Shown piece by piece: positions 41,850 to 58,287 of a stretch of DNA of 64,000 nucleotides. Positions within the stretch are counted from its first letter, which is position 1. Every line of letters begins with the position of its first letter. Origin of the DNA: an uncultured Methylophilus sp. (GTDB lineage Bacteria; Pseudomonadota; Gammaproteobacteria; Burkholderiales; Methylophilaceae); the NCBI GenBank assembly GCA_966248215.1, contig CBIMYT010000007.1, positions 26,167-90,166 on the forward strand. The letters run 5' to 3'. Made by a program: the position numbers and the translations under genes. The notes beneath the pieces are model-generated. The model worked only from the letters and a program-made list of their open reading frames with translations, ran no database searches and was not told where the DNA came from.

Positions 41850-42719
41850 TCAGAGTTGCAGGGTTTTCAGGTAGTCTTTGAAGCTGCTTGCAATCTCCGG
41901 ATGTTGCAAGCCCAGCTCAACGTTAGCCTGCATGAAACCCAGCTTGCAACCGCAATCATAACGCTTGCCCTTGTAGCGATAGGCTTTCACTTTTTCATAT
42001 TTCATCAGGGCGGAAATACCGTCAGTCAGCTGGATTTCCCCGCCTTTGCCAGGTTGAACATGCTCCAGGCAGTCAAAAATACGCGGCGTTAATATATACC
42101 GGCCGACCACGGCCAGGTTGGAAGGCGCTTCTTCCGGTTTTGGTTTTTCCACCATGCCTTTCACTTCCAGCAGGTCGTCGGATTCAGGCACGGCATCCAC
42201 TACACCATAGCTGCTGGTTTCTTCAGGCGCAACGGTTTCAATGCCGAGGATGGAGCATTGATGTTGCTCATAGACATCCACCATTTGCTTGGTAATGGAA
42301 ACATCTCCGCATAACAGGTCATCCGCAAGCAATACCGCAAACGGCTCATCACCCACGACAGGCTTGGCGCACAATACGGCATGCCCAAGTCCCAGCGCCT
42401 GGGACTGGCGGATAAAGATGCAACTGACTTCCTTGGGCAGAATACTGTGCACGACATTCAGCAGCTTCTGTTTATTGGCCGCTTCCAGTTCAGACTCCAG
42501 CTCGTAAGCTTTGTCAAAATGATCTTCAATGGAACGCTTGTTACGGCCGGTAATAAAAATCAGCTCGGTGGCACCTGCTGCAATGGCTTCTTCTACCGCA
42601 TACTGAATCAGTGGTTTATCAACGACAGGCAACATCTCTTTTGGGCTGGCCTTAGTGGCAGGTAAAAAACGGGTACCTAATCCGGCTACCGGAAAGACTG
42701 CTTTTGTAATTTTTTTCAT
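41850..42719 (-). CDS. galU: UTP--glucose-1-phosphate uridylyltransferase
   Basis: [34 protein letters not shown], 289 aa. Confidence 0.95.
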
Positions 42720-42859: not shown

Positions 42860-44893
<2,034 letters not shown>

Positions 44894-47471: not shown

Positions 47472-48050
47472 CTAGTCATTCAGTAAATTGTTTAACGGAT
47501 TGTCTGCCAGCCCCATATCCAGTGCGACCGTCGTTTGTGTTACCAGATCCGAAAGCTCTGCAACAGAAAGCGCCTGCGGAGAGGCGGCAGCCTGGCTTTC
47601 CACTGGCATCAGTACATCATTGATATGTAAAGCCCCACTCTGTTCGGAGGCGGAAAACAGCGATGCGGACACTGAAGGATGCGTAATAGACACAAAAGCC
47701 TCAGCATCTTCCCGCAACGCGGAAACCAGAGATAATGGCAAAATATCGGTGTCGTCCCACTGCAATGCCGCCAGCACATGCTGAACCACTGCCGGATTGA
47801 CAGCCTGCTCACTGATATCCATTTCACCGGAAGCAAGCAACGCTTCTGACAGCCGGACGGTCTGTTGCTCGGCAAACTGCACCATTTCACCATTCGGTGT
47901 CTGCATGGCAAGCTGGCTGCCGGTAGTCGTGACAAGCTGATCACCATCATGCAGGCTATCGCCTGCCTGAAGCAATACTCGCCGGCCATTCGCATCCACT
48001 ATTTCCACCATGCCGGTCAGGCTGACCACTGTTCCCAAAACTGTACACAT
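47472..48050 (-). CDS. Hypothetical 192-aa protein whose N-terminus resembles the retention module of LapA-type giant adhesins
   Basis: ATG at 48050 has AAGGAG 7 nt upstream. The N-terminal approx 70 aa (VLGTVVSLTGMVEIVDANGRRVLLQAGDSLHDGDQLVTTTGSQLAMQT) recall the N-terminal retention domain of type I secreted adhesins. The rest is acidic and Ser/Ala-rich. No repeats or C-terminal secretion signal recognised. Confidence 0.35.
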   Translation of the reverse strand: MCTVLGTVVSLTGMVEIVDANGRRVLLQAGDSLHDGDQLVTTTGSQLAMQTPNGEMVQFAEQQTVRLSEALLASGEMDISEQAVNPAVVQHVLAALQWDDTDILPLSLVSALREDAEAFVSITHPSVSASLFSASEQSGALHINDVLMPVESQAAASPQALSVAELSDLVTQTTVALDMGLADNPLNNLLND

Positions 48051-48279
48051 ACTTATCTCCTTCAGGCGCACATTATAAATGACTCGCCTTCAGAACAAAT
48101 TAGCTCATCCGGGTAACATTAAGCGTAATCTCCCATGCAGACTCTTGACTTTTTCAGCCGCCTTTGCACAAAAAACAGCGTTTTAAAGTACCACTCGAAA
48201 AATATAAAGAAATTCGCAAAAAGTGGTTGACCAAGGCGCGTGGTCTCAGTAATATAGCGCCTTCAAACGACGTACCGAT

Positions 48280-48355
48280 TCCTCAATAGCTCAGTCGGTA
48301 GAGCGCCGGACTGTTAATCCGTAGGTCCCTGGTTCGAGCCCAGGTTGAGGAGCCA
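48280..48355 (+). tRNA. tRNA-Asn (anticodon GTT), intact
   Basis: 76 nt. Acceptor TCCTCAA/TTGAGGA plus G-CCA, D-arm GCTC-AGTCGGTA-GAGC, anticodon loop CTGTTAA, T-arm CCTGG-TTCGAGC-CCAGG. Folded by eye; C27-U43 is unpaired. Confidence 0.92.
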
Positions 48356-48358
48356 AAT
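48310..48358 (+). repeat. Left copy of the 49-bp direct repeat (tRNA-Asn 3-prime 46 nt plus 3 nt), attL-like
   Basis: ACTGTTAATCCGTAGGTCCCTGGTTCGAGCCCAGGTTGAGGAGCCAAAT is identical base for base to 58005-58053. Confidence 0.9.
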
Positions 48359-49939
48359 TGATGCAAAAGTGGGCACTGTTAATTCAGCGCCCATTTTTTT
48401 CGTCTCAACAATCGCACTGGCCATCGCGTCATAGCTTCCGGATATAGTCGCCTCGCCATCTTTCAGCACAATCTCATGGACAAGCCCTTTCAAGTATTGC
48501 TTGCCGAAATTAGACTTGCGATCTGTCAGCTTACTTTTTAACACCTGCGTGAACACGTTGATGTTTTTATTATTCAATGCGTCAACTGGCATATCTTGCT
48601 GCCGTTTCATAGCTGCAATCTCTAATAAGATATCCTGCCGCCTTGTTTGAATGCTTCTTGATCTGCTCTGTAATGTTTCATCCATCGGCAGAAAGCCCTT
48701 CTCCACAGCTTCAAATAACCGTTCGTTACGTTGGTTTAACTCCTCCAGCTCTTTTTGTAGCGGCTGCGCGTGATTGGACTGGTCTTTGTTGCGCTGCACG
48801 ATCCGTTTTCGCATTTCTTGCATCATCGTGGAAACTCGCGCGGGCGTAAAAACCCTGTCTGCAAGGTTGGTCAGCACAAGATTGTCCAGTTTTTCCATTG
48901 AAATGGCAGGCATGGTGCACAAATGATTGCCCTTCCCGATGCGGGTATTGCATTTATAGTACCGATAGCGCCCGCCTTTACCCGTTGCCAGCGTCATGCC
49001 AGCACCACAGATGCCGCATTTCAATATGCCAGTGAGCAGTGTCGGGGAATTGACTAACCTCGGCGCCACTTTTGCGGGCGCGCGGTCCGCTCTGCGGATC
49101 CGTGCGTCCTCAAAGGTGCTCGCCTCGATGATCGCAGGTATCTCTACCTTGATCCATTCGCTTTCTGGTTTGAGCTCGCCGGTCTTGTTATTGCGCTTAT
49201 TAAAGTAATACTCGCCAATGTAGGCTTTGTTTGAAAGCACCTCATGCACGCGGCTGCGGTTCCATTTCTGAGTGCGTAACAGGATGTTTTTGCTATTTAG
49301 ATAGGTAGCGATCTCTTTCGCACCCATATGGCCTTGTTCGTTGCCGAACAGATATAAATGAAAAATCTTTTTGACCAGTTCTGATTCAACCGGATCAATA
49401 TCTATTTTCTTTTTCTTTTTGCTTTTAGCACCCATGACTTCAATTTCAACTGCGCGATAGCCAAATGGTGCCCGTGATCCATTCATGTACCCGCGTCTGG
49501 CGTTTTCTTTCATGGCGCGGATGGTGTGTTTACCGTTTTCTTTACTCTGGTACTCATCGAATAAACTAAAAACCTTACTAGCCATTTCCCCGGCTGGGTC
49601 ATCGCTTGTGATCTGAGTAATAGAGATCAGCTTGCAATGCGCCCTTCTCAGTTTTCGTTCATAGCTTAAAAACTCATACATATCGCGAAAGAAGCGTGAC
49701 CGACTATGTACGATGATGGCCTCATAGGGTTCGCTGTCGCTTGTGGCATCGGCAATCATCTGTTGAAACGCAGGTCGCCGGTCATCGGTGGCGGATGCAC
49801 CTGGCTCGATATATTCCATCGCCACGACATAACCATTTGCCTGACACCAGTCACGCATTTGATTGATCTGATCTGGGATTGATAAATCCTTTTCAGCCTG
49901 CCTGACTGTAGATACTCTCGCATAAAGTGCAACTGCCAT
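48314..49939 (-). CDS. Large serine recombinase (resolvase domain + recombinase domain + zinc ribbon + coiled coil)
   Basis: N-terminal YARVSTVRQ catalytic-serine motif. Cys-rich zinc ribbon CGICGAGM ... YYKCNTRIGKGNHLC. 541 aa. The last 15 codons (including the stop) lie within 48314-48358, antisense to the tRNA-Asn 3-prime end. Confidence 0.85.
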   Translation of the reverse strand: MAVALYARVSTVRQAEKDLSIPDQINQMRDWCQANGYVVAMEYIEPGASATDDRRPAFQQMIADATSDSEPYEAIIVHSRSRFFRDMYEFLSYERKLRRAHCKLISITQITSDDPAGEMASKVFSLFDEYQSKENGKHTIRAMKENARRGYMNGSRAPFGYRAVEIEVMGAKSKKKKKIDIDPVESELVKKIFHLYLFGNEQGHMGAKEIATYLNSKNILLRTQKWNRSRVHEVLSNKAYIGEYYFNKRNNKTGELKPESEWIKVEIPAIIEASTFEDARIRRADRAPAKVAPRLVNSPTLLTGILKCGICGAGMTLATGKGGRYRYYKCNTRIGKGNHLCTMPAISMEKLDNLVLTNLADRVFTPARVSTMMQEMRKRIVQRNKDQSNHAQPLQKELEELNQRNERLFEAVEKGFLPMDETLQSRSRSIQTRRQDILLEIAAMKRQQDMPVDALNNKNINVFTQVLKSKLTDRKSNFGKQYLKGLVHEIVLKDGEATISGSYDAMASAIVETKKMGAELTVPTFASIWLLNLGSNQGPTD

Positions 49940-49945
49940 TTGTAC

Positions 49946-50074
49946 TTACTCCCCTTCTATTTCAATACGCTGTAACAACTCAGCTAAAATTTCAGAAAAA
50001 AAAGTGCTGATCAACTGCATCTCGATTTCTTTCACACTCTCAGAAACAAAACTATGATGAAGAACCGCTACCAT
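49946..50074 (-). CDS. Possible 42-aa ORF between the Rep-like and recombinase genes
   Basis: Hand translation gives MVAVLHHSFVSESVKEIEMQLISTFFSEILAELLQRIEIEGE. Its ATG overlaps the Rep-like stop (ATGGTAG), and its stop lies 6 nt before the recombinase ATG. No homology recognised. Confidence 0.2.
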   Translation of the reverse strand: MVAVLHHSFVSESVKEIEMQLISTFFSEILAELLQRIEIEGE

Positions 50075-51150
50075 TCGCCCAACCTCATTTCATTCGCCCT
50101 GCGGTCAACTTCTTGCTGCCATGTTAGTGGATCGTGGATTTCAGAAACAATATTGAATAAATGCTGAAACGCTTCATCCATATATGACTTTGGATTACCT
50201 GAATACAAAACATCAATGGCCGCTACTCGCTTGATGTAGCCATATACGCTTAATGCAATTCTGGTTAATCGCTCATCGTAAAGATCAAGCGGCTTATGCT
50301 CTCGTTTAATGCCTAGACCTTGGAGGGTATCAATTTGAGCTAATAAATCCTTCCAAAGCGGATGTATTGCCCAGCGTGAACGATTGCTGTCATCGCCCTT
50401 GATTCGTAATGATGTGTGATTTGTTGAAAGGGAACGAAGCAAATCTGCCTGTCGCTCCTCAAGTGATTGCATGGATGAAATGCCCAATTTGCGAAGCTGA
50501 TCTTTTCGGACTTGCCATTCAATGCGCCACACATCTTGATCAATGCCCCAAAGTCTAAAAAGCCAGCTTTTTTGACTTTTCTCATTGATCTCATCTACTT
50601 TGTTGTACACCCTGAGAACGACATTTTCAGTACCAAATTTGAAAGTTTGGACTTTGCCATCCTTCCGATATTGGCTATCTTTGGTTGACCTTGATACAAA
50701 ACTATCCTCATCAAAATCAATCAGTGGGAGATGGTAGTCAAACGCGTAATCTACGCGTGACAATCTTTCGGGCTGGGCTTGAGTTAATCCAACTGATGCA
50801 GCCCAATTTAAGAAACGCTGATGCAATGTCAGCAAATCGTTATGCCATAACGCAATGCTGCGAAACTTAACGAAGAAGTTCGGTCGGTTAAACTCACCAA
50901 ATTGAATAATGAAGACATCATTTTCAATCAGGAATGGATAACCGCTAGCAGTGCCATGTGAAGCAAGCAAGAAATCCTCACAACCAAGCTTTATTGGTTT
51001 TGGTTTTTTTATCTTGGCTTTAGCAAGCGATTCTTTTTTCGATGCTAGATCAACAAAGTCTAATTTTGAGATACCTAAAGGGATTAAGTAATAGGCACAC
51101 TCAATTGTATCGAAGCCAGATAACAGAAATTGTGATAAGGGTTTTTTCAT
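50068..51150 (-). CDS. Divergent replication-initiation-factor-like (Rep_trans-like) protein
   Basis: The motif order matches the clearer Rep at 55372-56346: GFDTIECAYY versus IDWLAFT, LSRVDYAFDY versus ITRIDLAHDD, VLRVYNKVDE versus ILRIYEKGKQ, and WRIEWQVRKDQL versus WVRAEVEFKDKD. The family call is tentative. Confidence 0.45.
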   Translation of the reverse strand: MKKPLSQFLLSGFDTIECAYYLIPLGISKLDFVDLASKKESLAKAKIKKPKPIKLGCEDFLLASHGTASGYPFLIENDVFIIQFGEFNRPNFFVKFRSIALWHNDLLTLHQRFLNWAASVGLTQAQPERLSRVDYAFDYHLPLIDFDEDSFVSRSTKDSQYRKDGKVQTFKFGTENVVLRVYNKVDEINEKSQKSWLFRLWGIDQDVWRIEWQVRKDQLRKLGISSMQSLEERQADLLRSLSTNHTSLRIKGDDSNRSRWAIHPLWKDLLAQIDTLQGLGIKREHKPLDLYDERLTRIALSVYGYIKRVAAIDVLYSGNPKSYMDEAFQHLFNIVSEIHDPLTWQQEVDRRANEMRLGEW

Positions 51151-51164
51151 ACCCCTTATCTTAA

Positions 51165-51196
51165 ACCAAAAACAAAGGGGTCATCAAGACCCCTTT
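51165..51196 (-). terminator. Hairpin plus U-run immediately upstream of the Rep-like gene
   Basis: AAAGGGGTC(51174-51182)/GACCCCTTT(51188-51196). On the minus strand it is followed by GUUUUUGG. Confidence 0.45.
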
Positions 51197-51319
51197 AGAT
51201 AAATTTAATTAGAAATTATTCTACGATCTTCAATTTTTATATCGCCGCTGACGACTTTCCAAAAATTACCGATTTTCTTTGCCAGATTTAAACCAACTGA
51301 ACGACTTGATTGCGATCCC

Positions 51320-51562
51320 TCATCTGGAAAAAATTCTTTGTTCATATTTTCTAATGGTTCGTTTGTTATGGACAATTAATAAAACACGCCACCCGTAGTA
51401 ATCGCCAAATCTTAAAAAACCTAATGCCGCCTGAAGTTCGTCAAGCGAACCAGAAAAGTTTGCAACGGCATCACGCTCAATCTTTAAAAGCTCTTGCTCG
51501 CGCTCGCTAGTCCTGTCAGGCATTAATGCGAGATTATGATCTTTATGCGGATTCGTGTTCAT
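51320..51562 (-). CDS. Hypothetical 80-aa protein, divergent from the methyltransferase gene
   Basis: ORF only; no motif recognised. A 46-aa alternative ORF (51205-51345, MNKEFFPDEGSQ...) overlaps its 3-prime end. Confidence 0.3.
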   Translation of the reverse strand: MNTNPHKDHNLALMPDRTSEREQELLKIERDAVANFSGSLDELQAALGFLRFGDYYGWRVLLIVHNKRTIRKYEQRIFSR

Positions 51563-51660
51563 ATGAGGTTTCTCTTTTGATTTTTATACCATATCAAAAT
51601 AAGGGGTACACATCAACCCTATAAGTTCCTAAAAAACTCTCTTGTTTAACCAGTTCTATA

Positions 51661-51670
51661 AATGTACATT
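51661..51670. promoter_or_regulatory. 10-bp perfect palindrome AATGTACATT in the divergent promoter region of the R-M module
   Basis: Read directly from the sequence. A CCCCCG/CGGGGG hairpin (51691-51713) follows, 23 nt before the methyltransferase ATG. Confidence 0.3.
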
Positions 51671-51735
51671 GTTGATTATGTATTTTGAGCCCCCCGTGTT
51701 ACATAATCGGGGGTTGTTAATAGGGTAGAAAGTTT

Positions 51736-52995
51736 ATGAGTTTGAAGGTTTTGGATACTTTTGCGGGCGCTGGCGGGTTCAGCCTTGGATTTGAAATGGC
51801 GGGTGCGTCAATCATTGGCGCTATTGAAATGGATAGTTGGGCATGTGAAACCTTTAAGCATAACCATCCTAATTCATTGGTGCTTCAAGGAGATATTACT
51901 CAAATTACAGATGCTCAAATCTTAGAAACTTTCAATAATTCTAAACCAGATGTAATACTAGGAGGTCCTCCTTGCCAGGGATTTTCTATCGCTAATAAAA
52001 GGAATGGTGATCACAAAGATCCTAGAAACTCATTGTTCAAAGAGTTTATTCGAGTGGGTAAACTTTTAAATCCTGAGTTTATGATAATGGAGAATGTTCC
52101 AAATCTAATAAAAGCACAAACAGAATCTAAAGAATTGGTTATAGATATCATCTGTGATGAATTAAGAAATTTAGGTTACTTTGTAGACTATCGGATTCTT
52201 GAAGCTACTAATTATGGCGTTCCACAAATTAGAAAGAGGCTTTTTGTTATTGCATCAAAAAAGAAATTAGCAAGGCCCTTCCCTGATCGAACACACACAC
52301 TCTATCCAAAGCTGGATTTACTTGATGCGGATCTTTTGCAATGTCCAAGCGTATGGGACGCTATATCCGATCTACCAGAGTTAGAAGCTCGGGAAGGTGC
52401 TGAAGAATTAAATTACACCACTAGCGCAAAAAATGAATACCAAAAAATGCTTCGTGGAAACTCTCCATTTGTGTTCAATCATAAAGCAATGAATCATTCG
52501 AAAAGATTAGTTGATAGATTTTCTTCAATGAGCTGGGGAGATTCAACATCTGATGTTCCTGACCACTTGCGGCCATATAAAAGAAATAGCAAAGAGTTTT
52601 CCGAAAAGGCATATGATCAGAACAATAGACGCATGCATCCTGATAAGCCTTGTCACACTATAGCAGCGTCGTTCTATGCAAACTTCGTTCATCCCTATAA
52701 AAATAGAAACTTCACGGCTCGAGAAGGAGCCAGAATTCAATCGTTCCCTGATTGGTTCGTTTTTAAGGGAAAGCCAACTGTAATCAGTCATAAGCTTTTA
52801 CAAAGAGAAGGTAGGCATGAGGAGAAACACTTGTGCCAATACAACCAAATTGGAAATGCTGTACCCCCGCTACTCGCAAAAGCAGTAGCATTGAATATTA
52901 TTAATCAATTCAAAAAAGAAGAGAGGATCGAGAGTGTTCGTACATGGGAACAATTTGGAGCAGAAAGAAACTCATACGACGAAGTACAGGGATGA
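51736..52995 (+). CDS. DNA (cytosine-5)-methyltransferase
   Basis: Motif I LDTFAGAGGFSLGF, motif IV GGPPCQGFS, motif VI ENVPNL, motif VIII QIRKRLFVI, motif X QIGNAVPPLL. 419 aa. Confidence 0.92.
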   Translation: MSLKVLDTFAGAGGFSLGFEMAGASIIGAIEMDSWACETFKHNHPNSLVLQGDITQITDAQILETFNNSKPDVILGGPPCQGFSIANKRNGDHKDPRNSLFKEFIRVGKLLNPEFMIMENVPNLIKAQTESKELVIDIICDELRNLGYFVDYRILEATNYGVPQIRKRLFVIASKKKLARPFPDRTHTLYPKLDLLDADLLQCPSVWDAISDLPELEAREGAEELNYTTSAKNEYQKMLRGNSPFVFNHKAMNHSKRLVDRFSSMSWGDSTSDVPDHLRPYKRNSKEFSEKAYDQNNRRMHPDKPCHTIAASFYANFVHPYKNRNFTAREGARIQSFPDWFVFKGKPTVISHKLLQREGRHEEKHLCQYNQIGNAVPPLLAKAVALNIINQFKKEERIESVRTWEQFGAERNSYDEVQG

Positions 52996-53803
52996 AGGAT
53001 CTATTGTCTACCTAAAAGAAATTAGAGCGCGCTATGATGAATGGAAATCTGCAAACCTAGCGCTTATTGGTCCAACTAAAATTTTAGCTGACAATGATAG
53101 TGAAATTATTAAAAAAAGAGTTGAGCTTCTTAACGATTATAAAGATTTTATTGACCAGCAACATTACGCTGAACAATTCGACTCTCGCTCAAATTTACAC
53201 TCGTCTGTATTAGAAGAGTTTATGTATTACCTTTTTAAGGATTTAGAAAATTCAATTTCAAACTCAGCTTTAATCGGTAAATCTCACACATTTAAAGATT
53301 TATTTTTTAGCGCAGATAGTTATGCAGATATGTTAGATACCCCAACAATTAGGGTTGAACGGAAAGATCATGACTTTGCTATTGGGGTAAAAATCGAAGC
53401 CAGTTTTAAGACTGCTGGCCAGACGAAGGCAGAAACAAACGTTTGGGATTTGCCAGCAATAGCAATTGAATGCAAAACATATCTTGATAAAACAATGTTG
53501 CAAGACGCATCAACGGCTGCGGAAATCATTAAGCACAGAAATCCAAATGCTCTTTATATCGTAGTAGCTGAATGGCTGAAACTAACAGAGGCGGTTAATA
53601 TTCGCAAATTTAAAATTGATCAAATATATGTACTTAGAAAACAGAAAAATACTGATCGCGAATATAGATACAAGGAAACTTATGTAAAAAACCCTATTCA
53701 TCATGACGCAACTATTCATTTATATGAAACTGTTCGTCAATTCCTTACTACCCCGTGGGAAGGCAGTGTGAATCACGGATTGCAAAGAGGGTATCTGCTG
53801 TAG
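52934..53803 (+). CDS. Candidate type II restriction endonuclease partner
   Basis: GTG start with GAGAGGA 6 nt upstream, overlapping the last 62 nt of the methyltransferase gene. Candidate PD-(D/E)xK elements (HDFAIGV ... AIAIECKTY). No family recognised, and there is no in-frame ATG until far downstream. Confidence 0.45.
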   Translation: MFVHGNNLEQKETHTTKYRDEGSIVYLKEIRARYDEWKSANLALIGPTKILADNDSEIIKKRVELLNDYKDFIDQQHYAEQFDSRSNLHSSVLEEFMYYLFKDLENSISNSALIGKSHTFKDLFFSADSYADMLDTPTIRVERKDHDFAIGVKIEASFKTAGQTKAETNVWDLPAIAIECKTYLDKTMLQDASTAAEIIKHRNPNALYIVVAEWLKLTEAVNIRKFKIDQIYVLRKQKNTDREYRYKETYVKNPIHHDATIHLYETVRQFLTTPWEGSVNHGLQRGYLL

Positions 53804-53883
53804 ATTTAGTTAAAGAATTCATTGTAGAGCTATCAATCTATCAAGATTAATACTTTCCAGTTACCAGATTTAATAGTATTGGT

Positions 53884-53933
53884 GAGCCAAATAAAAGAAG
53901 CCTTGCAGAGATGCAGGGCTTTTTGCTTTTCTG
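53884..53933 (+). repeat. Partial att copy: GAGCCAAAT plus a diverged duplicate of the tRNA-Asn terminator region
   Basis: 45 of 50 positions are identical to 58045-58094 (hand alignment, no gaps). Substitutions in the stem preserve pairing (G-U). Confidence 0.7.
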
Positions 53934-53957
53934 TCTCTGTCACCATTTTGTCAACCA

Positions 53958-54953
53958 TTAACCACGTATAAAGTTTTCCAATCGCTTACTTGCCCCTTTG
54001 ATTTGTTCAGGAGCGATATGCGCATACCTTTCGACCATAGCAGAGGTTTTCCAACCACCTAGCTTTTGCAGCTCATGCGTAGGTGTGCCAGCTTGCCTAT
54101 GCCATGTTGCCCAAGTATGCCGCAAGTCATGCCAGCGGAAATCTTCAATCCCAGCACGTTTAAGCGCTTCACGCCATGCGCGTGTATTCAGGTTTGCAAT
54201 TGGGTTTCCTTTATACGTAAAAACGTTTTTAGGATGTTTGCCCTTTTGCTTAAGAATAATTTCCTTGGCTGTTTCTTCGAGATAGACAGGAATCGGACTA
54301 CCATTTTTTGACTTATCCGCTGGCACTGTTAAATAGCCAGTTTCCAAGTCAATCCATGACCATTCCATATTTGAAATATTGCCTTGCCGCAAACCAGTCA
54401 TGGCTGCAAACAAAACAATATCCTGCATATGATCAGGTAATTCCTGCATCAATTGTTCAAACTGCTGTTTTGTTAAAGAACGTTCTCGCCCTCTGGGTTC
54501 TCGGTAGAGTTTGATAAATACAACTTTATCCACCCACTCCCATTCATTCTGGGCTTTGCGCAAAATCGCACGTATTAAAGCAAGGTAGCGATTAACGGTC
54601 GTTTTTTTAGCCTCTTTGAGTTTGGTTACTTTTACCTTATCAATCACCTGTAAGGTAATTTCATCCAGCGTCAAATTGCCAAAAAAAGCATCCAGCCATT
54701 TCAGCTTTTTAATGTCCTCAAGATGCGTTCTTTTGTCACTGGTTTCTTGAAGCCACCTTGTAACCGCCTCATGCCAATAACGTTTAGGTTTAATCCCTAA
54801 GCGTTTTTGCAACCATAAATCAGCAGTTAACTTGTCGTGATACTCTTGCGCCAAGGCTTTATCTGTCGTGCCTGTAGTTTTATAGAGTATCTGACCGTCA
54901 ATGCTAATTTTTGCCCACCAGTTAGGTGAGCCCTTCCGTCGATATAAAGACAT
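53958..54953 (-). CDS. Tyrosine-type site-specific integrase
   Basis: The C-terminal catalytic region has WHDLRHTWATWH (HxLRH) and the tyrosine in MVERYAH. The N-terminal SAM-like arm/core binding region is present. 331 aa. Confidence 0.9.
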   Translation of the reverse strand: MSLYRRKGSPNWWAKISIDGQILYKTTGTTDKALAQEYHDKLTADLWLQKRLGIKPKRYWHEAVTRWLQETSDKRTHLEDIKKLKWLDAFFGNLTLDEITLQVIDKVKVTKLKEAKKTTVNRYLALIRAILRKAQNEWEWVDKVVFIKLYREPRGRERSLTKQQFEQLMQELPDHMQDIVLFAAMTGLRQGNISNMEWSWIDLETGYLTVPADKSKNGSPIPVYLEETAKEIILKQKGKHPKNVFTYKGNPIANLNTRAWREALKRAGIEDFRWHDLRHTWATWHRQAGTPTHELQKLGGWKTSAMVERYAHIAPEQIKGASKRLENFIRG

Positions 54954-54964
54954 AAACTTCCTTT

Positions 54965-55384
54965 CTATGCCTTTACGTCATCCGCTGGTCGATTGTGGCA
55001 TGTACGCGACTTGCCCACAAGCTCCACAGCCTTGCCTTTGGCAACCCGATCGGCTGCCCGTGCGTGGCTGTCGCCCCGCAGCCGATCAGGCGTTGGGCTA
55101 TGGATTTGTGGACAATCGCTCAAGCCAAGCACTTTTAAATATTCTGATTTGGTGGGCGTGATTACAACATCGCTTCTTGTACGCTGTTCTTTTACGATTA
55201 CGTTTTGCTTTTGTTGGTCAGGATTAAAGTTACCACGCAGGAAATCGACAAGATGGCTTTTAAGAAATAGCCATCTCTTACCGGGCTTTGCTGCTGGAAT
55301 AATCCCTGCTTTTGCTTTCTTCGTAAGTGTGATCGGGTGCATTTGCAGTAAAGCTGCGGCCTGTTTGATATTCAGGATTTCCAT
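54965..55384 (-). CDS. Helix-turn-helix (excisionase/MerR-like HTH_17) DNA-binding protein
   Basis: The N-terminus LNIKQAAALLQMHPITLTKKAKAGIIPAAKPGKRWLF is typical of excisionase-family HTH proteins. Its start overlaps the rep stop by 13 nt, and its stop lies 11 nt before the integrase start. Confidence 0.6.
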   Translation of the reverse strand: MEILNIKQAAALLQMHPITLTKKAKAGIIPAAKPGKRWLFLKSHLVDFLRGNFNPDQQKQNVIVKEQRTRSDVVITPTKSEYLKVLGLSDCPQIHSPTPDRLRGDSHARAADRVAKGKAVELVGKSRTCHNRPADDVKA

Positions 55385-56346
55385 GTTTCGTCCTCCTGCA
55401 ATACAGTCGGCAAAAGCGCTGCATAGTTTTCTAAGCGTTTAGGCGTACCCTCACGCCTAATGAGACTTACTACCTCAGCCGCATCACCACGATGTTGCAT
55501 GAGTAAAACATTCACTAACTTTCCCCCCATGTTTCGGAGGTGGTATGTTGCAGCCTCAATGCTAGTTTTTGCTGCTTTACTAATGGTTTTGATTTTTACC
55601 TGTACTTGCGACAAGAAACCTAAACAGGGATATGCAGCTGCCAAGTAGTGAGCAGGATTAGTCAGGATATCCCAAGGAATGATTCTGTCTTTGTCTTTGA
55701 ACTCAACCTCAGCGCGAACCCACAGACTAGACTTATCACCTAACTGTTTGCCCTTCTCATAAATGCGCAATATCTTTCCAGACCCCCTACGCCCTATATA
55801 AAAGGTTCTACCATCACCACTGGCCAAGTCGTCAATCAACGTCGCTTTAACCGCTGTATGCCCTTCCCTTGCACCGTTATGGCTATACATGCCTTGAGAA
55901 TGCCACTGCAATGCTTGTGCGATACTCAATACCTGACCTTCAAAGTCATCGTGAGCTAAGTCTATACGGGTGATTTTACGGGCATGTTCCATACACCATG
56001 CTTGCAGCAATTTCCAATCTGCAATCAATGCACAGCCTTGTGCATTTAGTTGTATGGATGCGGTGCCGCGTTGATTACTGCCGCCATGTGCGATCAAGCC
56101 TAAATTGACTTGACCATCCAAGTGGTGAATGTCGTGGCGCTCTTTGTAGCCGAACCAGCCTTTGCCTGTAGGCTTTAATTCTATTTTTGGGATAAATCGA
56201 CGTAGCTCATTAATCAACCAGACAATGTCGCTGGTTTCAGACAGCTGCACAGTGAAAGCAAGCCAGTCGATATGGGCTATTTGTGGGGAATTGATTCCCC
56301 CCGTAGTTACTAGGCGGGGGGATGATGACGCATTGCTATTTTGCAT
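55372..56346 (-). CDS. Replication initiation factor (Rep_trans / RstA-like)
   Basis: IDWLAFT, ITRIDLAHDD, TFYIGRRGSGKILRIYEKGKQ and WVRAEVEFKDKD, in the family order. ATG at 56346 (GAGG upstream) preferred over the longest ORF start at 56394. Confidence 0.8.
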   Translation of the reverse strand: MQNSNASSSPRLVTTGGINSPQIAHIDWLAFTVQLSETSDIVWLINELRRFIPKIELKPTGKGWFGYKERHDIHHLDGQVNLGLIAHGGSNQRGTASIQLNAQGCALIADWKLLQAWCMEHARKITRIDLAHDDFEGQVLSIAQALQWHSQGMYSHNGAREGHTAVKATLIDDLASGDGRTFYIGRRGSGKILRIYEKGKQLGDKSSLWVRAEVEFKDKDRIIPWDILTNPAHYLAAAYPCLGFLSQVQVKIKTISKAAKTSIEAATYHLRNMGGKLVNVLLMQHRGDAAEVVSLIRREGTPKRLENYAALLPTVLQEDETWKS

Positions 56347-56664
56347 GTTCTCAACCTCATAAAACTTGGGTTGAAAACAGAAAAACCTGCACAACCCAAT
56401 AGTTAATTGGATTGTTAACAGGTTTGCTTTTCCATTATCGGCTTGTTAACTTGCCGGGGAGCTTACCCCGACGGCCGCCTTGCTCAAGGGACGCACTTCG
56501 AGCCTTCGTTTTCAATTATGTTTGCGTAATTTCTGCACCTATACTAAACGATTAAAATCCAGAATGTCAACATAAGATGTGCAGGATGTCGCTGTGCGCA
56601 CTGCCGTGCGCAGCAGGGAGCATCCTGACACATCAACTGTTTTGTTTTATCTATCTTATTGCCT

Positions 56665-57756
56665 TTAAATTGCAGCTTTCAATTTACGTAATACCCCTCT
56701 CTTACCTGCTTTTATAATTTGGCTCTTTAGATATTCTGGAGCTTCAATTTCTTCACCCAGTAAAAATTGAGCAAATGCGCGTGCCAATTTTGATTTTCCT
56801 ATTTTCAAATATTCTCGCAGGTATCTATTACGAAAAAATGGGCTACGTACTGCTTTATACATAATAAGCATTGCATCGTCTTTGCTAGAAGAAATCTCTT
56901 CTTGCAGGCCCAGCCCTGCGAATGATTGCAATTGATTTAAACGATCTGCAGTTATATTGGGAAGCCCATTTTTAACGCATAAAATTAAATGCTGATCATA
57001 CAATGCACCGCCAATTGTTTTTGCAGGTAAGATTTTCGCAATGTGGTAATTCTGAAAACCAAATTCTGAGGCTTTCTTAACCCCATCAGGAGTTCTCTTA
57101 ACGCTATTATGACTTATAAGCATTCCGTCTGTAGCAAGATGATTCATAGCGAATGACACATATGCTTGAGCAGTCTTCGCAGGCATTTCTCCAAAACTTG
57201 AAAAATTTAATATCAAGTCAAATTTATCCAATGAGTCGATATTTTCTGGCTTGCGAAAATCATAGTTTGCATCAGGATGAATTTCCCTTAAATAGTATGT
57301 TGAAAGCTGCAACATTTCAGGCAAATCTATTATTGTATAACTTGCCGGAGTTAACATTCGTGTCAGAATTTCAGCCATTCCTCCGTAGCCAGCTCCAATT
57401 TCAAGAATTCTTAAATTCCTTCTATTTTCGAGTTCAAAAACAATTTTTGCTAATGACAAATTTTTAATATATGGGACGCTGGCCTTGTACCCGAGATGAT
57501 TTATGATCAAGGGCTGTCCAGCTGCAGGTTCAGGATATAAATCTAAATCTTGTGGTGATACATGATGCTTATAACGTTCAACCCAACTTTCAAATTGCTT
57601 TGTATACTCTGCTTCGTCAGTAACGCTCATACCAATACCAATTGCAGCAGCTTTCGATGGATTAAGAAAATCAGGACTCACTGTTTTACCTTGCGAAAGC
57701 TCTTTCCACATTATTGATTTTTCACCGAACATACCCACCCCTTTTTTATATAACAT
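56665..57756 (-). CDS. Class I SAM-dependent methyltransferase (substrate unknown)
   Basis: Motif I LRILEIGAGYGGMAEIL and post-I IIDL. No DPPY/NPPY or C5 motifs, so it is not an obvious DNA methyltransferase. 363 aa and very A+T-rich. Confidence 0.7.
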   Translation of the reverse strand: MLYKKGVGMFGEKSIMWKELSQGKTVSPDFLNPSKAAAIGIGMSVTDEAEYTKQFESWVERYKHHVSPQDLDLYPEPAAGQPLIINHLGYKASVPYIKNLSLAKIVFELENRRNLRILEIGAGYGGMAEILTRMLTPASYTIIDLPEMLQLSTYYLREIHPDANYDFRKPENIDSLDKFDLILNFSSFGEMPAKTAQAYVSFAMNHLATDGMLISHNSVKRTPDGVKKASEFGFQNYHIAKILPAKTIGGALYDQHLILCVKNGLPNITADRLNQLQSFAGLGLQEEISSSKDDAMLIMYKAVRSPFFRNRYLREYLKIGKSKLARAFAQFLLGEEIEAPEYLKSQIIKAGKRGVLRKLKAAI

Positions 57757-58004
57757 TCCATGTTTTTCAATAGACAGGCCGTTGTAATTTTACTTTAACA
57801 ACTATTCGTCCAACTTTCCTGATTTTTCTATTTTGTAATCTTCCCTTGTATCCAAACATTCTAGAATTGAGTGTATAAAATGTCACCATTTTGTCACTCA
57901 AACATAATAGCAATTATAAAATTGTAGCTAATTAACATTACTCTAAGTTAAAGCGGATAACGTAAGGCATTGTTTTTTAGATAACTATTAGAAAATGATT
58001 TAAA

Positions 58005-58053
58005 ACTGTTAATCCGTAGGTCCCTGGTTCGAGCCCAGGTTGAGGAGCCAAAT
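58005..58053 (+). repeat. Right copy of the 49-bp direct repeat (tRNA-Asn 3-prime fragment), attR-like
   Basis: Identical to 48310-48358. The base before it differs (A versus G), and the bases after it differ. Confidence 0.9.
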
Positions 58054-58060
58054 ATAAAAA

Positions 58061-58085
58061 GCCTTGTAGAAATGCAAGGCTTTTT
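58061..58085 (+). terminator. Native tRNA-Asn terminator, now displaced about 9.7 kb from the tRNA
   Basis: GCCTTG(58061-58066)/CAAGGC(58075-58080) followed by a T5 run. Confidence 0.6.
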
Positions 58086-58287
58086 GCTTTTCTGCAGATA
58101 GTCCATTCTTCTCCTGCTTGCCGACCCGCTCTCCTGCAATGCCTGCCAAAAATTCACCTGCGTGGCTAGATGTATATTCAACCGATTAAGACCAACCTAC
58201 ACATTAATCGGAAATACCACCCTTTTTTGTGCCTACGCATGGCTTTAGAGTTGATGCTTTCAACTTGATGAAGGCAAAGGAGTGGTT

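Follow-up and report, generated by a model that had tools for sequence, protein, structure and literature searches.

A small restriction-modification element apparently inserted at the 3' end of a tRNA-Asn gene by its own large serine recombinase, with the attachment site inside the recombinase gene

Results

Element A and its junctions

We describe a mobile element in a 64,000-nucleotide stretch of DNA from an uncultured Methylophilus sp. (assembly GCA_966248215.1, contig CBIMYT010000007.1, positions 26,167 to 90,166). This whole stretch is called the window below, and all coordinates are counted within it. The element, designated element A, is 5.5 kb long (48359-53883 plus one copy of its core) and carries a restriction-modification system. 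It lies between an intact tRNA-Asn(GTT) gene (48280-48355, plus strand), identified with ARAGORN and from the sequence, and a second island, element B (53893-58004). The end of element A next to the tRNA gene is occupied by the gene of a large serine recombinase (LSR), which in the inserted state is an open reading frame (ORF) of 541 codons on the minus strand (48314-49939). The G+C content falls from about 0.52 in the flanks to 0.34-0.48 within element A. A megablast search with element A against complete E. coli genomes gave no match.

The LSR has the domains expected of its class, namely PF00239 (Resolvase, 1.4e-28, residues 3-150), PF07508 (Recombinase, 1.5e-18) and PF13408 (Zn_ribbon_recom, 4.3e-17). 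Its motif YARVS10T, which includes the nucleophilic serine, is invariant in an alignment of 57 sequences. In the AlphaFold2 (AF2) model helices 366-413 and 421-446 form the inserted coiled coil, and the best Foldseek matches of this model are complexes of full-length serine integrases (E 1e-20 to 1e-15). The protein scores below the cut-off of every NCBIfam equivalog (for CcrB, 137 bits versus 900).

A repeat search located a 9-bp identity block, GAGCCAAAT, at the tRNA-side junction (48350-48358) and again at the far junction (53884-53892, plus strand). The wider contexts are TTGAGGAGCCAAAT at 48345-48358 and TTGGTGAGCCAAAT at 53879-53892. Both the coordinates and the letters agree with a first-pass annotation of this DNA, which had proposed the two copies as the ends of the element. 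The last 6 bp of the tRNA gene, GAGCCA (48350-48355), are the recombination core common to the whole family, as obtained by intersection across the related loci described below. The 9-bp repeat alone is weak evidence because 0.87 copies of such a 9-mer are expected by chance in the window; four are observed. The third copy (58045-58053, plus strand) lies within a 49-bp repeat of the tRNA-Asn 3' part (58005-58053, identical to 48310-48358). The significance of the 9-bp repeat rests on the comparison with other loci, not on the copy count.

The fourth copy of GAGCCAAAT (56717-56725, minus strand) is situated inside a methyltransferase-like ORF of element B. We considered it as a part of the system and rejected it: it has no flanking attachment-site motif and is probably a chance occurrence.

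The recombinase ORF had been reported to run across the left junction and to end antisense to the 3' end of the tRNA. This is the case, and the overlap with the tRNA-Asn gene is 42 nt, i.e., 13 codons (WLLNLGSNQGPTD) and the stop codon TAA. The encoded CCA of the tRNA (opposite TGG) is read as Trp, the 12 further codons are antisense to the acceptor stem, the T arm and the anticodon stem, and the stop codon is the complement of anticodon-loop bases. The number of antisense residues, given earlier as 14, needs a correction: 13 codons lie in the tRNA gene, and the count of 14 adds the Ile codon opposite the AAT trailer.

Related loci

Related loci with 39-74% identity were collected by protein-guided scans, 80 of them in species genomes and 80 in metagenomes. 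Where the LSR gene has its 3' end, 90 of these 160 loci have an intact tRNA gene on the opposite strand, 27 a tRNA 3' fragment and 25 another junction; 18 were not assessable. The LSR reading frame takes the CCA as a Trp codon in 88 of the 90 loci with an intact tRNA gene. These tRNA genes are specific for Asn (38), Arg (35), Glu (10), Ala (2), Lys (2), His (2) and Ser (1). The LSR tail encoded by the tRNA comprises 3-21 residues, and its length is set solely by the position of the first antisense stop. More than 4600 database proteins match the LSR at E<=1e-30; among the best 120, almost every one has the tRNA-Asn antisense peptide as its C-terminus. The homologues thus bear out the boundaries proposed in the first-pass annotation: across the 160 loci, and at the approximately 37 far ends located among them, related elements likewise end at a core of this kind, in a site of this kind.

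In L170-L172, which stem from a related organism, an LSR 93% identical to that of the window is encoded in a 4557-bp element between tRNA-Asn and a terminator homologous to the native one of the window. The flanks of this element have 78-84% nucleotide identity with the window, and the backbone of element A has 81-87%. The core is a 10-bp repeat, ATTTGGCTCn, containing ATTTGGCTC; the P arm is of the same type, and the cargo is different. There is no tyrosine-integrase island beside this element. An element of this type therefore stands alone at the same core, and the view of element A as independent of the tyrosine integrase is upheld.

In the loci L001, L002, L005, L015, L036, L048, L090, L091, L093 and L102 the LSR gene directly adjoins a tRNA-Asn fragment cut off precisely at the anticodon loop. 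Such fragments are scars of tyrosine-integrase islands inserted earlier or later. Tandem arrays therefore exist in both orders.

Attachment sites

The attachment site of the mobile partner of a serine integrase (attP) is an imperfect inverted repeat around a central dinucleotide and has little identity with the chromosomal site (attB). Excision additionally needs a directionality factor.

Far ends were located in about 37 loci, where the last 6-18 bp of the tRNA gene recur 4.1-9.8 kb upstream of the LSR gene. This repeat always covers TGGC and two further bases on the LSR strand. Identity common to all loci is limited to offsets 0-5, i.e., GAGCCA in the tRNA (positions 71-76); the extra AAT is lineage-specific. 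Identity between attP and attB is thereby as short as 6 bp, and the direct repeat is 9 bp for element A against 49 bp for element B.

The arms on both sides of the core are related to each other. At offsets +22..+32 the far end carries CTGGGCACTGG, the reverse complement of an invariant GTGCCCAG located at -21..-14 beside the end of the LSR gene. The pair GTGCCCAG / CTGGGCAC forms an inverted repeat with its axis at offset +4 (tRNA position 72) in 37 loci. Per-position information content reveals further mirrored positions, TT at -12/-11 and AA at +19/+20. In the window the P' arm on the element side (48359-48380) includes GTGGGCAC (48369-48376), on the LSR strand GTGCCCAC with Val-Pro as its translation; GTGCCC of this motif, which occupies offsets -21..-14 throughout the family, is kept in 35-37 of 37 loci. 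The P-arm motif of the window, CCAGTTACCAG (53857-53867; family consensus CCAGTGCCCAG), mirrors the P' motif about the axis at tRNA position 72, fits the family pattern and closely resembles those of L003, L008 and L048. The core repeat with its two mirror-image motifs resembles an attP site of the LSR type. On the LSR strand this putative site reads GTGCCCAG-N13-TGGCTC-N16-CTGGKMACTGG, is about 55 bp long and is imperfectly palindromic. For element A the predicted junction of the excised circle (attP) is TTAATAGTATTGGTGAGCCAAATTGATGCAAAAGTGGGCAC, and the predicted restored chromosomal site is GGTTGAGGAGCCAAATAAAAGAAGCCTTGC. The chromosomal arm downstream of the tRNA is weakly conserved, being T-rich with CTTGAT in a subset of loci.

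Rebuilding of the tRNA upon integration requires bases 73-76 to be identical. The crossover has to fall inside the identity block.

Two loci (L015 and L114) in which the motif is shifted were treated as false positives among the candidate far junctions. In another observation, in L103, L111, L116 and L114, just past the LSR Trp codon, TGGCTCCCCG is followed by a shared TGTAnCCTTTGCGnACC, which is neither tRNA nor the usual P arm. The TGTAnCCTTTGCGnACC subgroup may have a different target or a different attP type.

Two C-termini of the recombinase

The attP site lies inside the 3' end of the LSR gene, so that upon integration the final 16 codons come to lie at the opposite end of the element. 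Joining the two ends of element A gives the end of the free form of the protein, TVPTFASIWL followed by TNTIKSGNWKVLILID*; the 16 codons with the stop are located at 53833-53883 on the minus strand. The earlier hand translation through 53883-53833 gave the same result when recomputed. The free-form protein has 546 amino acids and the inserted form 541: integration replaces the last 16 codons with 11 tRNA-antisense codons (13 if the two shared W-L core codons are counted). The earlier statement that the C-terminus depends on the integration state thus holds at the level of sequence, and conservation of the free-form tail extends over the family.

About 37 such tails were reconstructed. They follow the pattern W-(L/R)-x3-(D/G)-(E/K)-x-G-(H/N/Q)-W-x3-h-x-h, i.e., two Trp residues and a hydrophobic strand. 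The stop codon of the free-form ORF is 17-19 codons past the first Trp in most reconstructions (11/14 of the first ones). An alignment of 35 tails is free of gaps at 24-86% identity, with both Trp residues invariant. Beyond the P-arm motif only two bases are conserved, T at +43 and T at +49 (35/37 each). Both occupy second codon positions and specify hydrophobic residues; they are 39-45 bp from the dyad, their neighbours are not conserved, and they have no mirror partner in the P' arm. Conserved bases at second codon positions without a mirror partner argue for selection on the protein. It is the free-form tail, and not the tRNA-encoded one, that bears the mark of this selection.

A profile search with free-form C-termini returned short fragments alone, about eight of them with a free-form tail. 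Contiguous free-form tails are present in the database fragments P0127 (WRARRDESGQWFEVLAVD), P0150, P0139, P0142, P0165, P0176 and P0216 and in locus L009. Since contiguous free-form tails exist, the reconstruction corresponds to real DNA. Locus L009 (10001-11635) encodes a full-length LSR in the attP-intact state within a 1.7-Mb contig, and its Rep-like gene is split by an insertion of about 2.8 kb. In L178 (6272-9670) three tyrosine recombinase genes cut the LSR gene short, and the attP-state tail is retained.

Gene content of element A and its relatives

The cargo of element A is a type II restriction-modification pair, which consists of a C-5 cytosine DNA methyltransferase (51736-52995, plus strand; PF00145, 8.4e-69) and a Bpu10I-like restriction endonuclease (52934-53803, plus strand; PF09549, 1e-29). 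A domain scan of the ORFs revealed neither virion genes nor a PF00589 (tyrosine recombinase) gene in element A; the one at 53958-54953 is a gene of element B.

Upstream of the LSR gene is a gene for a 360-residue protein (50068-51150, minus strand) that is distantly similar to rolling-circle initiators of the Rep_trans and phage G2P kinds; its match to Pfam Rep_trans (2.8e-5, 24.3 bits) is under the curated cut-off of 29.6. In 78 loci a homologue, encoded on the same strand, precedes the LSR gene at a distance of 126-976 nt (mostly about 130-560). Among 21 family members scanned, 11 match Rep_trans and 8 match Phage_CRI (filamentous-phage G2P), all weakly. The Rep-like gene is a conserved partner gene of the LSR. 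We infer from it that the element may replicate after excision or be mobilised by a helper element.

The gap between these two genes holds an ORF of 42 codons (49946-50074, minus strand), which is a gene call in L081 and L179. It has no family match, and small ORFs fill the same gap in L170; the 42-residue product is a candidate directionality factor.

A small gene upstream of the Rep-like gene (51205-51562, minus strand) is frameshifted in the window, and its 125-residue product is intact in a 99.85%-identical contig from another sample (L081). The frameshift is caused by a 20-bp deletion, TTTTATATTGATGTTGAGAA, at 51336/51337 relative to L081. Apart from this deletion, the two contigs differ over 21.6 kb by just 12 substitutions, which form clusters at 41955-42084 and 44474-44522.

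The cargo of 10 sampled relatives includes an Mrr-type nuclease, an OLD/AbiEii-like ATPase, HerA, a SIR2-STAND protein, a reverse transcriptase and methyltransferases. The family is thus one of small integrative elements with a Rep_trans/G2P-like initiator, one or two tiny ORFs, an LSR and variable, mostly anti-phage cargo.

Element B and the terminator hairpins

Element B is not a part of element A. It has the above tyrosine integrase gene (53958-54953, minus strand) and HTH_17 Xis-like, clear Rep_trans and methyltransferase-like genes. Behind it there is a 49-bp fragment of the tRNA-Asn 3' part followed by the native terminator (58005-58095, plus strand), which by its letters is an unoccupied attB copy for the LSR; relatives (L001, L005, L090, L091 and others) sit inserted at exactly such tRNA-Asn fragments. 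The 49-bp direct repeats, 48310-48358 and 58005-58053, start in the anticodon loop and mark the original integration of element B. With element A in place they enclose both elements, and excision by the tyrosine integrase would probably release only a 9.7-kb composite.

The left end of element B carries a terminator-like hairpin (53893-53935, plus strand) with a handful of substitutions relative to the native terminator at 58054-58095. When element A inserted, this hairpin would have been the B arm of the target site. Apparently, the attP of element B includes a captured tRNA 3' half together with the terminator. The terminator copies compared are 53897-53925, just inside the left end of element B, and 58057-58085, the native one of the host.

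Element A supplies a putative terminator of its own. RNA folding predicts a terminator-like hairpin followed by U7 right after the tRNA gene (48365-48400, plus strand; -21 kcal/mol, z -5.7), antisense to the last 25 or so codons of the LSR gene. One arm of its stem is the GTGCCC motif of attP, which also encodes the invariant Val-Pro. A stem with a T-run within 70 nt of the CCA is found in 41 of the 90 loci with an intact tRNA gene, and 0.3 are expected from shuffled sequences.

Read on the minus strand (48370-48393), the hairpin of element A is terminator-like as well, with CTTTTG behind the stem, and it precedes the LSR stop by about 20 codons. LSR transcripts would have no stop codon if they were terminated there.

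In several assemblies of the same population (L181, L183-L187) the contigs break in or at the end of the tRNA-Asn gene. The breaks are probably due to the 49-bp repeat, with heterogeneity of the population as an alternative.

Discussion

We consider it very probable that element A was inserted by its own LSR into the 3' end of the tRNA-Asn gene, with attP within the LSR gene and a protein tail that differs between the two states. Element B would have entered first through its tyrosine integrase, at the identity reaching from the anticodon loop to the 3' end of the tRNA. The LSR would then have recombined its attP with the tRNA-Asn 3' end, between the rebuilt tRNA gene and element B. The crossover would fall within the last six bases of the tRNA gene, and element A would both restore the tRNA end and bring the new terminator hairpin. 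The order of the two insertions is itself inferred, because only this one gives the layout observed. The crossover can be placed only to the six-base block because the dyad axis falls on a base and the tRNA-Arg cores are largely palindromic.

A number of observations weigh against this interpretation or parts of it. A scan with the attP pattern for free circles gave 7 chance hits in viral contigs, all without an LSR, and a stricter Asn-type pattern gave no hits in metagenome contigs. There are no terminal overlaps marking circles among the related contigs. In a search for the empty site through the flanking gene of 192 codons, same-population contigs either carry element A or break in the tRNA gene, and all that cross the site are occupied. 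Among the small ORFs of element A no directionality factor was recognised in the family searches. The dyad is centred on a single base and not between two, and in the tRNA-Arg cores (TGGCGC) most of the candidate dinucleotides are palindromic. The two natural attP-state fragments that were followed proved to be chromosomal remnants and not circles. In the AF2 model of the inserted form residues 516-541 are disordered, and in the model of a natural free-form fragment the mean confidence is low (predicted local distance difference test, 58), with the last 8 residues in a strand; the latter is only a hint of a strand in the free-form tail.

The meaning of the tail exchange is the least certain part. 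The evolutionarily selected full-length integrase would be the 546-residue free form, and the inserted form, lacking the C-terminal strand, may have an altered activity or stability. A bolder suggestion is that the integration-dependent C-terminus is a built-in switch, where only the circle encodes the full integrase and the tRNA-antisense peptide alters activity, directionality or stability; we regard this as possible but doubtful. If it is true, the enzyme would "know" whether the element is free or inserted, and the system would parallel, in bacteria and with a serine recombinase, the suicidal integrases of archaea and the integration-dependent immunity of phages.

The exchange could instead be a neutral by-product. 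According to this explanation, which comes close to an even chance of being right, the overlap is merely a compact module of integrase gene and attP, the tail is the P-arm DNA motif in translation, and the two variants behave alike. In favour of it, the P-arm motif CTGGGCACTGG itself codes for much of the conserved tail (SGHW), residues 516-541 are disordered in the AF2 model, inserted tails of 3 to 21 residues dictated by the tRNA alone are evidently tolerated, and early stops occur in some free-form tails (L041; P0090, with SGH as its end). Against it stands the pair of T bases at +43 and +49, at second codon positions and without a mirror partner. The position of the free-form stop, kept in most reconstructions despite divergent DNA, and the gap-free alignment of divergent tails also speak against neutrality.

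It is rather unlikely that element A is a fixed relic, i.e., that it was integrated as described and persists as a resident restriction-modification island with an inactive inserted-form LSR. Such a state would agree with the failure of the contig scans to find a circle or an empty site, with the 20-bp frameshifting deletion in a backbone gene and with the unused attB copy at 58005-58095. However, the LSR ORF is intact and keeps all residues invariant in the family, including the serine of YARVST, and the small gene is intact in the 99.85%-identical contig. In addition, the 93%-identical LSR with other cargo at the same site in a relative indicates recent activity of the lineage. Finally, that A and B are one 9.7-kb composite moved by the tyrosine integrase via the 49-bp repeats, with a coincidental 9-bp repeat and the LSR as cargo or resolvase, is very improbable: the 49-bp repeats do bracket both elements, about 0.9 chance copies of the 9-mer are expected per window and the tyrosine integrase can now probably excise A and B only jointly, but the same type of LSR element ends at the same core without B, the far end has the family-specific mirror motif at the right spacing, and the pattern extends over 160 loci and seven tRNA species.

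Insertion by the LSR into the tRNA end, as preferred here, is an ordinary LSR mechanism with an unusual family-wide target; the attachment site in the LSR gene renders the C-terminus of the enzyme dependent on the integration state. The LSR of element A shares the resolvase, recombinase and zinc-ribbon domains and the coiled coil with phiC31, Bxb1, Listeria A118/LI, TP901-1 and CcrAB. Its proposed attP resembles those of the phiC31/Bxb1 type in being a short imperfect inverted repeat, with distal motifs about 18-25 bp from the centre and identity with attB over a few bp. Whereas those integrases target protein-coding or intergenic sites, the element A family targets the extreme 3' end of tRNA genes; its identity block (at least 6 bp) is set by the rebuilding of the tRNA, and its attP lies within the ORF of its own integrase. 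As a linked idea we put forward that the family recognises the encoded CCA end and the universal T-arm, which would explain the easy switching among at least seven tRNA species.

The claim of the first-pass annotation that tRNA targeting is unusual for serine recombinases stands in part. A 2022 survey covering thousands of LSRs dealt with targets that code for proteins and never mentions tRNA, yet precedents exist. The filamentous phages phiRSM use a small serine recombinase and the 3' 13 bp of a tRNA-Ser gene (PMC4471427), and for one Paracoccus phage that has a serine recombinase, tRNA-Met is the predicted site. Mobilizable elements of Mesorhizobium with serine recombinases are mentioned without detail. 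In the literature searched, which did not cover Mageeney et al. 2020 (TIGER), there is no description of this tRNA-end LSR family. The Ralstonia phages phiRSM1 and phiRSM3 resemble element A in having a serine recombinase acting at a tRNA 3' end, a short core and a rolling-circle initiator, the Rep-like protein of element A being weakly G2P-like. In contrast to the LSR of 541 residues, the phiRSM integrase is small and has no recombinase or zinc-ribbon domains; its attP is located between orf14 and orf15 and not inside the integrase gene, and phiRSM is a complete inovirus whereas element A has no virion genes.

Tyrosine islands of the Islander type, such as element B, likewise integrate into tRNA genes, rebuild the tRNA, leave a direct repeat and form tandem arrays at one tRNA. 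They differ from the LSR family in the recombinase and in the repeat, which is 49 bp from the anticodon loop in element B and 6-18 bp at the CCA end in the LSR family. An attachment site inside the integrase gene has been called exclusive to archaeal "suicidal" tyrosine integrases (PMC8371274). As in element A, attP of these SSV-type elements is inside the integrase ORF and integration changes this ORF. The difference is that a tyrosine recombinase gene is split there into two large parts and inactivated, while in the LSR 16 codons are exchanged and the domains stay intact.

A further parallel is provided by mycobacteriophages of clusters G, N and P (BPs, Brujita). Work by Broussard and co-authors in 2013 is said to have found integration-dependent immunity with attP in a coding sequence, the proteins of the integrated and free forms differing in their C-termini and in their properties, and to have demonstrated the removal of a degradation tag experimentally. 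In BPs and Brujita the affected gene is the repressor and the integrase is of the tyrosine type; in element A it is the integrase itself, and an effect of the tail is hypothetical.

Integrative mobilizable elements of the Rep_trans family have been described in Firmicutes (PMC5704250, PMC7563843). Such elements share with element A the small size, the combination of an integrase, a Rep_trans-like protein and cargo, and no conjugation machinery. In element A, in contrast, the Rep-like protein is below the Pfam threshold, and no origin of transfer (oriT) or helper is known, with no search for oriT made.

Genes of tRNAs are treated as targets of tyrosine integrases, and both island finders and the main LSR survey were built on this assumption. 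With an LSR family spread over several phyla and directed to the last six bases of tRNA genes, many small tRNA-adjacent islands may have been misassigned or missed. Restriction-modification and other anti-phage genes are carried by these elements in compact form, and the elements stack in tandem with tyrosine-integrase islands at the same tRNA gene. Serine integrases work without host factors. Together with near-universal target sequences, this would offer landing sites in almost any bacterium. The attachment site in the integrase gene and the conserved free-form tail raise the idea that the integration state feeds back on a serine integrase.

Additional observations

Comparison of positions 47472-58100 of the window with L170 (5988-12443) showed that the segment with the 192-codon gene, the tRNA-Asn gene and the islands is inverted between the window genome and this close relative. 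Orientation is unchanged in the outer flanks of the segment, where an aminotransferase gene lies on one side and cytochrome bd oxidase on the other. The two genomes differ in the neighbouring genes too, with an alcohol dehydrogenase gene in the window and a HAEPLYID-domain gene in L170.

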